64,000 nt of DNA from Phycisphaerae bacterium (GTDB lineage: Bacteria; Planctomycetota; Phycisphaerae; SM23-33): assembly GCA_009783465.1 (NCBI GenBank), contig WRDM01000008.1:2943-66942 (forward strand). The letters are read 5' to 3'. The position numbers and the translations under genes are program-made. The notes below the pieces were generated by a model. It was not told where the DNA came from. It searched no databases and worked only from the letters and a program-made list of their open reading frames with translations. Below, piece after piece: positions 1 through 51,292 of this stretch (position 1 is its first letter; each line of letters begins with the position of its first letter).

Positions 1-158
1 TAGCCAGTAGCCAATCGCCAGTAGCCAACAGGTATGGGACGACAAGGGCGAAAGGCAATGAAAGCGGAAACAGGTAAACGCGTAGCGACGAATCGGGATC
101 GTGTGATTTGCGACAGACCTCGCCGTACCTGGTGGCTATTGGCTACTGGCTGTTGGCT
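1..158. repeat. HS-A hairpin element (GCCAGTA/GCCAATA heptad arms), left arm cut by the window edge
   Basis: Arms 1-29 and 123-158. Junctions AGGTATGG / CGTACCT. The loop carries blocks GGCGAAAGGCAATGAA and GGATCGTGTGATTTGCGACAG. Confidence 0.8.
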
Positions 159-3998: not shown

Positions 3999-4030
3999 GG
4001 GTTTCGTTGCTCGATGGTGAAAACGTGCCG

Positions 4031-4208
4031 CGCGTTCGAGGGAACCTAGCCAGTAGCCAATAGCCAGTAGCCAATAGGTATGGGTAAATCTGTGGCGGAT
4101 CACACGATCCTGATTTTGACCACGCTCGTATCCATTCCCACGATCACTGCCAATTTCGCCGTTGTCTTTCCTTACCTACTGGCTACTGGCTTGGTTCCCT
4201 CGAACGCG
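4031..4208. repeat. HS-A hairpin element with TTCGAGGGAAC clamp; loop inverted relative to copies 1 and 3
   Basis: Clamp CGCGTTCGAGGGAACC / GGTTCCCTCGAACGCG. The arms are heptad arrays. The loop blocks are present as reverse complement. Confidence 0.85.
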
Positions 4209-4240
4209 CGGTTCATTTTTACCCGCGTGCCGCGAACAGC

Positions 4241-4714
4241 CTACAGCCACATGCCCGTGATGAGGCCTTCGAAGACGAATTGGTCTTTGACGAAGCCCTG
4301 CACGGCGCCGATGGCGCGGCGGGGGCGGCTTTCGACCATTTTGGCCACCATGATCAGGCGGTCGCCGGGCACGACCTGGCCTCGGAATTTCACGTCCGTC
4401 ACGCCGCCGAACCCCAGGAATCCTTTGCCGGGATTGCGGGACATCTCGAGGTAGCTGACCAGTTGGGCGGCGGTCTCGATCATCAGCACGCCGGGGAACA
4501 GCGGCCGGCCTGGGATGTGCCCGCGAACCCAGAACTCGTCGCTTCGGCAGTCGCGGAAACCGGCCAGCGCGCAGGTGGTTTCGTCGACGAAAAAAATCCC
4601 ATCCAGCAGTTGAAACTCATACGCGTGCGGGTTGACCTTGTAAATGCCGGCCTTGTCGACGGCAATTTTCGATGGGTCCAACGTCGCCAGATCAATGTAC
4701 GGTTGCGGGGGCAT
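4241..4714 (-). CDS. FabA/FabZ-family 3-hydroxyacyl-ACP dehydratase (hotdog fold)
   Basis: ORF 4241..4825, ATG at 4714. Active-site region 'RGHIPGRPLFPGVLMIETAAQ' is typical of FabZ. Confidence 0.75.
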   Translation of the reverse strand: MPPQPYIDLATLDPSKIAVDKAGIYKVNPHAYEFQLLDGIFFVDETTCALAGFRDCRSDEFWVRGHIPGRPLFPGVLMIETAAQLVSYLEMSRNPGKGFLGFGGVTDVKFRGQVVPGDRLIMVAKMVESRPRRAIGAVQGFVKDQFVFEGLITGMWL

Positions 4715-4838
4715 AAGTTTTTCCTCATGAAGACAATGATTGAGCGTATCCGAATCCGCTGGCGGTTTCAACCGGATTGCTGCGCTCGTCCAGGGCGAAC
4801 GCATATGCATTTCTCTTTCTCGCACGGGATCCGTGTGT

Positions 4839-12776: not shown

Positions 12777-13934
12777 ATGCCGTTTACTGGCAAGGCAACC
12801 TATTCCGCCGGCAGCACGCTGCCGGAAATCGCCGATGACGTGTCGGACATCGTCAGCATCGTCAGTCCGTACGAAACCCCGCTGCTGGATCACCTGGGCG
12901 ACCCGGCCCGCGCGGCGTCGAGCACGTATCACGAGTGGCTTGAGGACAGCCTGATTCCCAACATGGACGTGATCAACGACACGGTCATGACGGACCCGGC
13001 CAACAAGACCACGATCACGATGACCAACGGTTCGCGGTTCCGCGTCGGCGACCAGATTCGTCCGCACGGCAGTCTCGAGATTCTGTACGTGACCAACGTG
13101 ACGAACAATGTGATCACCGTCACGCGCGGCTACGGCGCAACGCCCAAGACCGCCATCGCCAACGGGCAGACACTGCACATCATCGGCAACGCCGCCCTGG
13201 AAGGCGACGACGCGCCGCTGACCCGATTCACCAGTCGCGTGCGAAAAGGCAACTGGACGCAGATTTTTGTCTCCACCGTCCGCGTCAGCGGCAGCGACCT
13301 GGCCGTCCGCAAACTGGCCGTCAGCGACGAATTGGATTACCAGAAGCAGGAACGTCTGCGCGAGATGCTCCGCGACCTGGAGAGCACCGTGCTTTGTGGC
13401 CGTTCGCCGCTGATGTCGCCCGAGGGCAGTTCCACCGTCCGCCGAACGATGATGGGCATCCTGCCGTCGATCACCACCAACGTGTTCAAGCCCAGCGTCG
13501 GCGGCTTCCCCAACGACACGGCCCTGACCGAGGCCCAACTGAATCTCGCGATGCGGCGGATCTGGGAAGGTTCCAGCGCCCGCGTGGACACGATCGTCGT
13601 TGGCGGCTTCCAGAAGCGGCGGATCAACGGCTTCATCGCGTCGGGGGCGAGGAATATCAACGGCCGCGAGACGACCTACCGTGATCTGGTGAGCGTGTAC
13701 GAGAGCGATTTCGGCGTGTGCCGGATCATTCTCAGCCGCTCGCTGCCGGCTGACAGCGTGCTGCTGCTGGACTCCAGCCGCGTGAGCGTGATGCCGCTGA
13801 ACGGACGACACTTCCACTACAAACCGCTGGCCACCACTGGCGATTACGAAGCCGGCGAAGTCATCGGCGAGTACACGGTCGAACTGCGTAACGAAATCGC
13901 CCACGGCATCATCACGGGCCTGGATGCGAGCTAA
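12777..13934 (+). CDS. phage major capsid protein (DUF5309/SU10-like)
   Basis: SD AAGGAG. 'VSIVSPYETPLLDHLG...YHEWLEDSL' and 'NWTQIF...VSGS' match the DUF5309 capsid pattern as I recall it. Confidence 0.7.
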   Translation: MPFTGKATYSAGSTLPEIADDVSDIVSIVSPYETPLLDHLGDPARAASSTYHEWLEDSLIPNMDVINDTVMTDPANKTTITMTNGSRFRVGDQIRPHGSLEILYVTNVTNNVITVTRGYGATPKTAIANGQTLHIIGNAALEGDDAPLTRFTSRVRKGNWTQIFVSTVRVSGSDLAVRKLAVSDELDYQKQERLREMLRDLESTVLCGRSPLMSPEGSSTVRRTMMGILPSITTNVFKPSVGGFPNDTALTEAQLNLAMRRIWEGSSARVDTIVVGGFQKRRINGFIASGARNINGRETTYRDLVSVYESDFGVCRIILSRSLPADSVLLLDSSRVSVMPLNGRHFHYKPLATTGDYEAGEVIGEYTVELRNEIAHGIITGLDAS

Positions 13935-13937
13935 CGG

Positions 13938-14094
13938 CAGCCAATAGCCAGTAGCCAATAGCCAATAGGTACGGAACGATATTGGCGAAAGGCAATGAAT
14001 GTGGGAGTTGGCATAAATCTCAAACAGATCACGATCGTGTGATTTTCGACAGGTTTCACCATACCTATTGGCTACTGGCTGCTGGCTACTGGCT
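13938..14094. repeat. HS-A hairpin element, copy 3
   Basis: Arms 13938-13969 and 14061-14094. Loop blocks are the same as in copy 1. Confidence 0.85.
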
Positions 14095-14111
14095 TTTTCA
14101 GGAGAATTCCC

Positions 14112-14762
14112 ATGACCCCACAATGTACCGACCGTGATTTGCTGGCCTTGGAAACGATTCTGTTTCTCGGCGCCGGCGGGACGCAGCAGTTGACTGGCGG
14201 AGCGAACGGGCAGTTGAGCGGCACGACGTTCACCGCCGCCGGCGCCGATTTTCCGGAGGCCGGCATTCAGCCCGGCATGGTGCTGACCACGTACGACCCC
14301 GCCCGCGGGCCGGCGGAAGGGCGGGCCTGCGAAATCGTCGCCGTGCGGGCGGCGACGCAACTGGACGTCTCCGTCCTCCGCGCCGCCGCGGACGCCCCGT
14401 CCGTCGCGCCGTATCCAGGGGGAACCCACTTTCTCATCCGCACCTATCAGCCGCAAATCCAGGCCGTCCATGACGCACTGATGGAGCGGCTGATGCGGGC
14501 GCGTGCGGCCGACCGGGCCAATGTTGGTTCGTTTCTGCCTTCGCCGCAACTGCGGCAGGCCCTGGCGTGCGGGACGCTGGCGGCCGTGTTTGTCAGCCGG
14601 GCGCAGGATGGCACCGCCGCCGACGCCAACTGGCTCAAGGCCGAGCACTACCGCCGCGAGTTCGAGCGGCTCTCGTCCTCGCTGCAACTGACGCCCGAAT
14701 CCTCCGACGGCCTGGGCGGTGGCGTAGTTGCGATGGGCAACGTGACATTGAGGAGGGTGTGA
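14112..14762 (+). CDS. phage structural protein, head-tail connector candidate
   Basis: SD CAGGAGAA. Position immediately after the capsid gene. No recognisable motif. Confidence 0.5.
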   Translation: MTPQCTDRDLLALETILFLGAGGTQQLTGGANGQLSGTTFTAAGADFPEAGIQPGMVLTTYDPARGPAEGRACEIVAVRAATQLDVSVLRAAADAPSVAPYPGGTHFLIRTYQPQIQAVHDALMERLMRARAADRANVGSFLPSPQLRQALACGTLAAVFVSRAQDGTAADANWLKAEHYRREFERLSSSLQLTPESSDGLGGGVVAMGNVTLRRV

Positions 14763-21370: not shown

Positions 21371-21829
21371 ATGACGTTGCTGGGCGGCTGTGCGGCGCCG
21401 ACGGCCACGCTGGATTTGATTGCCGTCGCCCGCGCGGGATTGGCCGACGCGCGGGATGCGCAGCGGCAGTCGCACGAGACCTTGATACGGCAGTTCTCTC
21501 AGCAGCAGGCGGCGCTCGACGCGGCCTTCGACGCCGACGTCCGGCTGGCGGAGGCCGGGGCGATCCGCGACGCGCAGGGCAACCCCGTCGCGCTGGACGG
21601 GCGATGGGTGATCGCCGCCCGCAAAGGCTATGTGGCCGCCCGCGACGCCGTGGCACAACAGGCCGTTGCCGCGCAGGCCGCCCACGCCACGCGGCTGGAC
21701 AACCTCGCCGCCGCCGACGACGCGCTCCACATGGCCTGCACGCTCATCATCGAACAACAGGGCCTGAACATCCGCATGCGGCAGTACCTCCAGAAAGCCA
21801 CAAGCCACAAGCCACTAGCCACAAGGTAA
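21371..21829 (+). CDS. helical lipoprotein
   Basis: Lipobox 'LLGGC'. Start ambiguous (GTG 21359 or ATG 21371). The C-terminal 'KATSHKPLATR' is encoded by a repeat arm. Confidence 0.45.
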   Translation: MTLLGGCAAPTATLDLIAVARAGLADARDAQRQSHETLIRQFSQQQAALDAAFDADVRLAEAGAIRDAQGNPVALDGRWVIAARKGYVAARDAVAQQAVAAQAAHATRLDNLAAADDALHMACTLIIEQQGLNIRMRQYLQKATSHKPLATR

Positions 21830-21947
21830 GGATAGTCTCTGGCTAAAAGACAATGATCGCGGAAATGGCTGTACCTGTTCGATGAACCAGGATCGGCTGA
21901 TGGGTAACAGGTTTTGCCATACCTGGTGGCTAGTGGCTAGTGGCTTT
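21794..21947. repeat. HS-B hairpin
   Basis: Arms AAAGCCACAAGCCACAAGCCACTAGCCACAAGGTAAGG / CCATACCTGGTGGCTAGTGGCTAGTGGCTTT. Confidence 0.85.
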
Positions 21948-30430: not shown

Positions 30431-30748
30431 AAAGCCAGTAGCCAATAGCCAGTAGCCAATAGGTATGGAACGTCTCTGGTTATGAGGTAGTGTAAGCGGG
30501 AATGGTTACGCCTGTCGGGGTGGTTGAGTTTCCTGCACGACGAAAGCATCTGGTTTTGTGAGGAAAACAACCGATTATCCTCCCCGGTCTCGTACGGCAG
30601 TGCCGGTTCTTCCGCGCGAGACCGGGGAGATCAATCGGTTGTTTTCCACATCGAATCCGCACAGGCCAGCAACACGACAGTCACCACAAAATCATCCATC
30701 ATACCTGCTGGCTACTGGCTGGTGGCTATTGGCTTTGTTCCTTCGAAC
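30431..30748. repeat. HS-A hairpin with nested I-family hairpin (30562-30647)
   Basis: Arms 30431-30461 and 30701-30736. Inner hairpin GGAAAACAACCGATTATCCTCCCCGGTCTCG...CGAGACCGGGGAGATCAATCGGTTGTTTTCC. Confidence 0.8.
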
Positions 30749-31073: not shown

Positions 31074-31295
31074 ACAAGCCACAAGCCACTAGCCACCCGG
31101 CTCCGCCAAAGCTACGTCGGGCAAGCAAGCCACAAGGTATGGCGAAATCTTTTTCGCGCCAGACGATCCCCGTTTCGGCTGGTGGTATCGTTGTTTCCGC
31201 TTTTATTGTCGTTTCGCCCTGTGCGTCCCTTACCTTGTGGCTTGCTTGCCCGACGTAGCCTTGGCGGAGCCGGGTGGCTAGTGGCTTGTGGCTTG
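31074..31295. repeat. HS-B-related hairpin with ~65-nt near-perfect arms
   Basis: Left arm ACAAGCCACAAGCCACTAGCCACCCGGCTCCGCCAAAGCTACGTCGGGCAAGCAAGCCACAAGGTA. The right arm is its reverse complement. Confidence 0.85.
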
Positions 31296-47705: not shown

Positions 47706-47892
47706 AAAGCCACAAGCCACTAGCCACCAGGTATTGCAGCGTTTGCTGTCATCACAGGGCACACTGCCGGTGTGCGAATGAAAACGTGATCACGAGTCCG
47801 CGAAGCATCGAGACCACTCTCTCGAACGAGAGGAGCGGTTTTACCGTCGTGCCGCGAAAACCCTGGTGGCTAGTGGCTTGTGGCTAGTGGCT
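47706..47892. repeat. HS-B hairpin
   Basis: AAAGCCACAAGCCACTAGCCACCAGGTA ... GGTTTTACCGTCGTGCCGCGAAAACCCTGGTGGCTAGTGGCTTGTGGCTAGTGGCT. Confidence 0.85.
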
Positions 47893-51129: not shown

Positions 51130-51292
51130 GTTTCCATGATCGTCATATTCCGGCGCCACTGGCCACAGGCCCTGCCATTTTGCGTTGCAGATCGTTGTGA
51201 CAGACGAAGCGTTCTGTCGCTCAACAACATTTTACAACGCAAAATGGCAGGGCCTGTGGCCAGTGGCGCCGGAATATGACGATCATGGAAAC
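51130..51292. repeat. H-family hairpin element, copy 2 (longer arms)
   Basis: GTTTCCATGATCGTCATATTCCGGCGCCACTGGCCACAGGCCCTGCCATTTTGCGTTG ... reverse complement. Confidence 0.85.

Follow-up and report, generated by a model that had tools for sequence, protein, structure and literature searches.

On balance, the element at 13938-14094 is probably a lineage-specific, ORF-less miniature of a family of foldback cassettes whose full-length members carry a PF05635/TIGR02436 gene, and it is probably co-transcribed with the genes around it. PF05635/TIGR02436 is the "23S rRNA intervening-sequence protein," a four-helix bundle distantly similar to Avd. The DNA analyzed here, referred to as the window, is 64,000 nucleotides long (C8:2943-66942) and belongs to a 2.48-Mb assembly of 70 contigs, about 70% complete, with 62% GC. 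Using an nhmmer profile with 69 loops as input, we found 100 cores of the same kind, which we call type A, in the 2.48-Mb assembly, 49 on the plus strand and 51 on the minus strand; 89 of these 100 matched cores are full length. The type A core is about 105 nt long and lies between inverted arrays of a GCCA(G/A/C)TA heptamer and an inner repeat, AGGTATGG/CCATACCT. Read from the outside in, the consensus runs from the heptamer arrays, GCCA(G/A/C)(T/A/C)A, through the inner repeat AGGTATGG and then GGAACGACAAGGGCGAAAAGGCAATGAAAGCGGGAAC, about 25 nt of low conservation, GGATCGTGTGA, about 16 nt, and CCATACCT to the complementary arrays. Like a MITE, type A is short and non-coding, is present in many dispersed copies, and has terminal inverted repeats.

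The copy at 13938-14094 (copy 3, plus strand throughout) lies in a phage-like structural module, with an SU10-type major capsid gene upstream and the next gene of the module downstream. Its upstream border (13932-13939) consists of the TAA stop codon of the capsid gene (13932-13934) followed by CGGCA. The left arm (13940-13966) is a tandem array of heptamers, GCCAATA GCCAGTA GCCAATA GCCAAT, in which TAG/ATAG at 7-nt spacing places a stop codon in each of the three frames. It is followed by the left half of the inner repeat (13967-13974), AGGTACGG here and AGGTATGG in the family consensus, with seven of eight positions invariant in 86 to 87 of 87 copies and the sixth position variable. Block 1 (13984-13998) reads GGCGAAAGGCAATGA, falls within the family block GGCGAAAAGGCAATGAAAGCGGGAAC, and matches the leader of the PF05635 cassettes in its 5′ part. 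The middle of the loop (13999-14032) is more diverged, with a degenerate consensus (..GGATAYRYGTGGCGAAAATCAG..) and many columns near saturation, and leads to block 2 (14033-14052), GATCGTGTGATTTTCGACAG, the family core of which, ATCGTGTGA, is kept in 77 to 85 of 87 copies. The right half of the inner repeat (14059-14066), CCATACCT, is invariant in 82 to 87 of 87 copies. The right arm (14067-14093) is the complementary array of heptamers, ATTGGCTACTGGCTGCTGGCTACTGGC, and has no stop codon in any frame; the downstream border (14094-14111) holds a T-run (14094-14098) and then an AGGAG Shine-Dalgarno-like motif; the gene that follows starts with ATG at 14112 and encodes 216 amino acids. The hairpin folded from 13932-14100 has an energy of −73.9 kcal/mol (z = −9.5).

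The initial annotation listed three copies, at 1-158, 4031-4208, and 13938-14094. All three are where it placed them, but the window has five type A copies in all, and the word GCCAGTAGCCA occurs in it 35 times against 0.6 expected. Copy 1 (1-158, plus strand) is sense to a methyltransferase gene starting at 190. It is made up of AGGTATGG at 30-37, block 1 at 47-61, block 2 at 96-116, CCGTACCT at 123-130, and a T-run from 158, all on the plus strand, and its left outer arm, TCGAGGGA, lies just beyond the window edge. Copy 2 (4028-4211, minus strand) is located between two minus-strand genes, a FabA-like gene at 4241-4825 and a gene for a UVR-motif protein ending at 2862. An outer palindrome, CCGCGCGTTCGAGGGAACC at 4028-4046 and GGTTCCCTCGAACGCGCGG at 4193-4211, encloses this copy, and its blocks appear as reverse complements, block 2 at 4099-4109 and block 1 at 4144-4160. 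Copy 4 (21802-21946, plus strand) is a type A core with GCCACTA/GCCACAA arms and has the same orientation as the flanking plus-strand genes. It is a naked copy, by which we mean a type A copy without the outer TTCGAGGGAA palindrome (..CGTTCGAGGGAA.. / ..TTCCCTCGAACG..); copies with both outer arms are referred to as outer2. Copy 5 (31075-31295, minus strand) is a type A core nested within a further palindrome layer.

The two blocks that the initial annotation described as common to the loops are indeed shared, with corrections: its pattern for block 1 has one letter too many and no match, since copies 1 and 3 read GGCGAAAGGCAATGA there and copy 2, once reverse-complemented, reads GGCGAAATTGGCAGTGA, and the distance between the blocks is 32 to 33 nt instead of about 40 nt. 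The core of the 4-kb copy is reverse-complemented, as proposed, but its arms are not unchanged. The innermost arm unit is asymmetric, with ..AATAGG on the left (ATAGG) and CCTGATGG.. on the right (CCTGA), and flips together with the loop, so that the whole element is inverted.

Type A loops have diverged to a mean pairwise identity of 59%, with nearest neighbors at 72 to 75%, and conservation is concentrated in a few places. AGCCA of each heptamer and the inner-repeat columns are invariant in 85 to 87 of 87 copies; with GCGG and ATCGTGTGA included, and seven of eight positions counted per inner-repeat half, the set is kept in about 77 to 87 of 87. The variable positions of the heptamers co-vary between the two arms across the 87 copies. 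We considered a hypervariable, guide-like segment in the loop and rejected it, as the middle retains a degenerate consensus and is simply less constrained.

Type A has a number of structural variants. Many loci have up to three or four palindrome layers around the core (for example, C29:26759-26998 and C6:31033-31261), in the order ..TTCCGTTCTCGTGGCG.., ..CGTTCGAGGGAA.., arrays, inner repeat, and these multi-layer elements seem to occupy the apex of other hairpins. Four "half" copies (C24:174-258, C22:23278-23361, C28:26162-26244, and C18:39934-40011) have a common start at profile position 22 to 25, inside GGCGAAAAGGCA, so that what remains is the 3′ part together with the right arm and T-run; the shared breakpoint suggests a site-specific event. 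The copy at C5:50366-50562 has an insert of about 55 nt between a duplicated GGCGAAA(T/C)GGC, so block 1 may be a target of another small element. The window also contains a GCCAGTA-armed hairpin with a 250-nt loop (30434-30733), which starts like type A (GGAACG..AAGCGGGAATGG) and is otherwise unrelated to it; the unrelated part recurs at C1:100291-100555 (..CCTCCCCGGTCTCGT..). A separate family of 90-nt hairpins, GCCACTGGCCA CAGGCCCTGCCA(G/T)TTTGCGTTG .. CAACGCAAA(C/A)TGGCAGGGCCTG, is found in the window at 51155-51267 (C8:54097-54209) and at no fewer than six other loci.

We then examined the orientation of the cores relative to genes, which were called with a self-trained, home-made codon-usage model; in the window, its calls are consistent with the genes supported by Pfam and with those publicly annotated on the source contig. 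Between co-directional genes, 53 cores point the same way as the genes and 11 point the opposite way (binomial p = 1e-7). The proposal that loop orientation follows transcription, based on three copies, thus holds across the genome: orientation is not random, and the blocks are conserved. There is no bias in divergent spacers (10:10), and the split in convergent spacers is 6:2. As a much noisier cross-check, longest-ORF gene calls give 30:12 overall and 19:5 for naked copies; at 62% GC such direction calls are unreliable, and just 37 of 82 contexts come out as they do under the codon model.

A replication-strand bias would mimic this rule if type A moved by single-strand DNA transposition of the IS200/IS605 or REP/RAYT type, the link with transcription being a by-product of gene-strand bias. 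Type A is a hairpin repeat, its arm words GTAG/ATAG/CTAG recall GTAG-tagged REPs, and the genome does have a gene for a Y1 transposase (PF01797, RAYT-like; C23:13440-13916). However, where gene direction and local GC skew are in conflict, the core goes with the genes in 17 cases and with the skew in 4, and overall agreement with the skew is only 59:41 (p = 0.09), with no relation to skew in divergent spacers. The orientation correlate is therefore transcription and not replication, and on this local skew test we rejected the replication-strand explanation, which we regard as very improbable. The RAYT-like gene was also rejected as a mobilizer, being flanked by different, GC-rich REPs and not by GCCA arrays. 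Within C23:13300-14100, this gene of about 160 codons has inverted REP pairs of its own on both sides (GCCCCGAAGGGGC.. and GGGTAGCCCAGGGTGAGC..), and it looks like a separate REP/RAYT system. Taken as a conserved, oriented unit that tracks transcription rather than replication, the loop is, as the initial annotation argued, more than a spacer.

The rule does not apply equally to all copies. In co-directional junctions, 30 naked copies have the same orientation as the genes and 2 the opposite, while outer2 copies split 7:5 (Fisher p = 0.011). Gene context differs as well: naked copies are found in 32 co-directional versus 5 divergent or convergent spacers, and outer2 copies in 12 versus 17 (Fisher p = 2e-4), mostly in divergent spacers (13). 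It is the naked copies, in tight gene junctions, that give rise to the genome-wide orientation rule. Same-orientation copies begin close behind the upstream stop codon (median, about 6 nt) or overlap it, which is possible because the left arm has TAG in three frames, and end about 15 to 30 nt ahead of the next start (about 0 to 30 nt to the next gene). Opposite-orientation copies occur in much longer spacers, with 69 to 548 nt before the next gene. The sequence (stop)..AACGGCA immediately precedes the left arm in at least seven naked copies and in two metagenomic cassettes. Among 27 naked same-orientation copies, 14 have a T-run after the right arm and 5 have an A-run before the left arm. A terminator scan flags 14081-14093 plus TTTTT, with the next gene 17 nt downstream. 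An intrinsic (Rho-independent) terminator is a GC-rich hairpin directly followed by a U-run, and the type A stem of about 35 bp with a loop of about 85 nt is far from this canonical form.

The relatives of type A pointed to what the element may be. Four genes for PF05635 (the 23S rRNA IVS protein) are present in the genome; each lies within inverted tandem-repeat arrays of its own unit, clearly heptameric in three of the four, and all four are co-oriented with their neighbors. The units are GTGACAA at C18:23700-24380, CTGTAGG/CTGTAGA at C31:13250-13800, and GAATGACGAAAC-like at C50:1040-1500. The fourth cassette, C18:27125-27724, has arms and inner repeat in common with type A: GCCAATA/GCCATCA arms, AGGTAAGG..CCATACCTGA, and the leader CACGATAAGGGCGAA. 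Its protein matches TIGR02436 and, weakly, Avd, and a PADLOC search assigned this four-helix-bundle protein to no defense system. Four metagenomic relatives of this cassette (L017-L020) have 73 to 77% protein identity and an identical chassis, and one of them is syntenic. When the type A profile was run against the GCCA-armed cassettes, it matched all five at the left end (model positions 2 to 25 or 30) and at the right end (65 or 78 to 104), collinearly and on the ORF strand. The end matches are individually weak (E between 1e-3 and 0.08, the search space being small), and the symmetric inner repeat makes up part of each; opposite-strand matches are weaker. The central 45 nt or so of type A (AATGAAAGCGGGAAC..GATCGTGTGA) has no clear counterpart in the cassettes.

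By these alignments, type A shares with PF05635 cassettes its arms, its inner repeat, and, probably, the first ~25 to 30 and last ~25 to 40 nt of its loop, on the ORF strand; since the end matches are collinear in five cassettes, the "sense" strand of type A would correspond to the cassette ORF strand. For what had been called cargo in the loop, a remnant or chassis of a selfish cassette is the better reading, given that the loop ends appear homologous to the cassette leader and trailer. With this apparent homology limited to the loop ends, type A could equally be a deletion derivative or the same chassis with a different cargo. The loop (~105 nt, with no maintained ORF) lacks the PF05635/S23p ORF, and since only full-length relatives with the same arms carry one, type A is at most an ORF-less derivative and not a strict member of the IVS-type PF05635 cassettes. 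No copy was found in 23S rRNA; all are between or at the ends of protein-coding genes. To see how general the cassette layout is, we looked at 80 metagenome PF05635 loci, where the neighbors are co-oriented 48:10 and 51:9. In 62 of the loci the flanks were long enough to look for inverted repeats; 30 of these have flanking repeats that exceed all control pairs, with a period of 7 in 26 of the 30.

None of 40 related genomes has the type A core or chassis, and when 185,579 species genomes were scanned for the pattern, one chance match was all that turned up. From these comparisons, type A is confined to one lineage. A search with the neighboring capsid protein returned the source contig only, no empty site was found, and no direct repeats indicative of target-site duplication were seen at type A borders. 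We found no transposase parent with type A ends, the only relative with those ends being the one that encodes PF05635, which is not known to be a transposase. The 70%-complete assembly yielded no reverse transcriptase. The genome does have an RNase III gene (rnc).

Selection alone might produce the polarity of type A. Elements would insert in random orientation, and antisense copies in operons would be purged because antisense loop RNA is harmful. The antisense loop is an unstructured stretch of about 85 nt with 31% C, 18% G, and 35% U, resembling a Rho-loading site, and its RNA would be complementary to the sense transcripts of other copies. The long spacers of the opposite-orientation copies fit this explanation, as does the lack of bias where read-through is not needed, in divergent spacers and in outer2 copies. 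A sister family argues otherwise. Type B loops, of about 140 nt, are found in the window at 47716-47891 (C8:50658-50833) and at about 30 other loci, and are oriented with transcription 19:5 overall and 16:3 in copies without an outer palindrome; yet they have no purine or G/C skew (G, 27.2%; C, 26.8%). A C-rich, Rho-site-like antisense loop is thus weakened as a general cause of polarity. Furthermore, naked copies are enriched in operon junctions, not depleted, and random insertion with purifying selection predicts otherwise. As a full account of the data, selection alone is unlikely, but selection against antisense copies is a serious rival for the cause of the polarity.

Type B itself is a chimera. 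At its 5′ end, 38 nt correspond to the type A 3′ end in reverse complement; the remainder is the right half of a fully palindromic loop of about 185 nt, type C (AGGGCTTGCG..TTCGAGAGAGTGGTCTC..). Since type B is biased too, and yet carries this shared segment in reverse complement, no single shared module explains the polarity of both families.

A host-beneficial RNA module, in which the sense copy yields a functional RNA of about 90 to 150 nt or an mRNA processing or protein-binding signal and the blocks are under RNA selection, would also account for a core oriented with transcription and for blocks that are far better conserved than the rest of the loop. The sense loop is unstructured, with a purine content of 66% (A, 34.5; G, 31.1; C, 18.4; T, 16.0) and several GGA motifs, and stem mispairs in naked sense copies tend to be of the G·U type over the A·C type (51 versus 33), which at p = 0.06 is a trend only. 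The initial annotation had favored such a functional RNA, or else a strand-specific protein site. We found no structured RNA in the loop: RNAalifold, run on both strands, paired only the inner repeat and arms, with no consensus fold within the loop, and neither APC-corrected mutual information nor an analysis of two candidate helices (GGCGAA with TTCGCC) gave Watson-Crick covariation in the loop. A search of Rfam 15 returned only a tRNA at the gathering threshold, and at permissive thresholds 13880-14140 had only a chance snoRNA match (E = 3). The family is confined to one lineage, and the outer-palindrome copies, whose blocks are no less conserved, have no orientation bias. Identity of the blocks to the consensus in outer-palindrome, divergent-spacer, and opposite-orientation copies equals or exceeds that in naked sense copies. 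Since these copies are not transcribed in sense within operons, their equal or higher conservation speaks for blocks that serve the element itself as sites, and against motifs under selection in the sense RNA. We consider the host RNA module quite unlikely; a strand-specific protein site on the blocks is possible.

The proposal that the loop encodes a micro-protein of 15 to 32 amino acids, running from the ATG in GCAATGAAAGC to the TGA in GTGTGA or from the ATG in GGTATGG to the TGA in CCTGA, is hardly credible and was rejected, for although a frame of 15 codons plus stop is open in the consensus and in copies 2 and 3, it is not maintained across copies: the spacing from ATG to TGA, 45 nt in 40 copies, shifts to 46 nt in 21 and to 44 or 47 nt in 6, the start position reads ATG, GTG, ACG, AGG, AAG, ATA, or GCG, and about a dozen copies have in-frame stops.

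The site after the capsid gene adds a comparison across genera. In nine other genera, the orthologous spacers between the capsid gene and the next gene (100 to 236 nt) all hold strong but unrelated stem-loops, which start about 15 to 140 nt after the capsid stop; five were folded and have z of −3.3 to −5.2. From these hairpins at orthologous junctions, it follows that a post-capsid stem-loop is conserved in position, and type A supplies it in this genome. Three of the loci, L106, L110, and L114, from three other genera, have a homologous GC-rich hairpin of about 90 to 120 nt (CCGGCGCC..GGCGCCGGGCC..) just past the capsid stop, apparently an older structured element that is conserved in the phage-like (GTA-like) module.

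We favor the miniature-cassette reading and propose the following course of events. A type A element would be transcribed together with its host genes. The stem of about 30 to 35 bp would loop the insert out, such that the upstream stop and the next start stay close. For the host transcript, the operative part would be the stem, which by analogy with IVSs and with Correia and ERIC elements is probably cleaved by RNase III and/or serves as a 3′ stabilizer or attenuator; it would take the position of a post-stop-codon hairpin, filled in relatives by unrelated stem-loops. The blocks would be cis sites of the cassette, for its maintenance or mobilization, possibly bound by the four-helix-bundle protein, and not a host small RNA. 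The polarity would reflect the life of the cassette family inside transcription units. Of the two causes considered for it, polar insertion at post-stop hairpin sites seems to us somewhat the better one, given that naked copies are overrepresented in operon junctions, which goes beyond mere tolerance. A bolder version, which we hold improbable, is that heptamer-armed cassettes with a PF05635 Avd-like gene, together with their ORF-less miniatures, form an unrecognized class of mobile elements with transcription-polar integration at post-stop-codon hairpins. The route of such integration could be the transcript, or else the transcription bubble together with the hairpin apex. If true, it would explain the sense position of the cassettes both in rRNA, as in classical IVSs, and in mRNA junctions, as well as the retained polarity of copies that have no gene (30:2).

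The closest known systems are the 23S rRNA IVSs with an S23p/PF05635 ORF in Coxiella burnetii and Leptospira (PMC4990558), which, like type A, have a long terminal inverted repeat and a stem of about 28 to 35 bp. For the rRNA IVS, excision by RNase III midway in a 28-bp stem is documented (PMC4990558). Both are sense within the host transcript, a position that for type A we infer from gene direction. The IVS protein family is also present in the full-length relatives of type A, and RNase III, which excises IVSs, is encoded here. Unlike an IVS, type A resides in mRNA gene junctions and not in 23S rRNA, has tandem-heptamer arms, and has lost its ORF or never had one; there are about 100 copies per genome, compared to one IVS per rRNA operon.

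Small, non-coding, dispersed hairpin repeats that are co-transcribed, as we read type A to be, include the Correia elements (NEMIS) of Neisseria and the ERIC/IRU elements of enterobacteria (PMC3049150). Correia elements are cleaved by RNase III, and ERIC elements have orientation-dependent effects on the upstream mRNA (summarized in PMC3049150). Type A differs in having no sequence relation to them, no DDE-type parent or TA duplication that we could see, and arms built of heptamer arrays. We know of no description of a strong genome-wide sense bias, such as that of type A in operon junctions, for Correia or ERIC elements. RAYT-mobilized REP/BIME/REPIN sequences are, like type A, abundant extragenic palindromes often found just past stop codons, with a modular mosaic structure and GTAG-like words in the arms. 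In contrast to them, type A is oriented by transcription and not by replication, has a long conserved loop (~85 nt), and shares its genome with a single RAYT-like gene, the only one found, that has different flanking REPs. The cyanobacterial STRR and the TAACTGA repeats of Beggiatoaceae (PMC4679880) resemble type A in their intergenic 7-nt tandem units with stops in all frames in one orientation, and the TAACTGA repeats have a transcription-related orientation (PMC4679880). STRR and TAACTGA repeats form mostly direct arrays without a conserved loop, whereas type A has inverted arrays around a conserved, oriented core.

To our knowledge, IVSs have been known for 35 years with no accepted origin or mobility mechanism, and the heptamer tandem repeats of bacteria are likewise unexplained. 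Type A brings together, in about 100 diverged copies within one genome, a polarity rule, a contrast between junction and nested copies, and a sequence link to an IVS protein cassette. This makes it possible to test how cassettes enter transcription units and how a large stem affects a polycistronic mRNA through processing, stabilization, or attenuation. Type A elements also affect the gene calls of Phycisphaerae MAGs, since they bring in stop codons and perhaps also N-terminal extensions and signals that resemble terminators.
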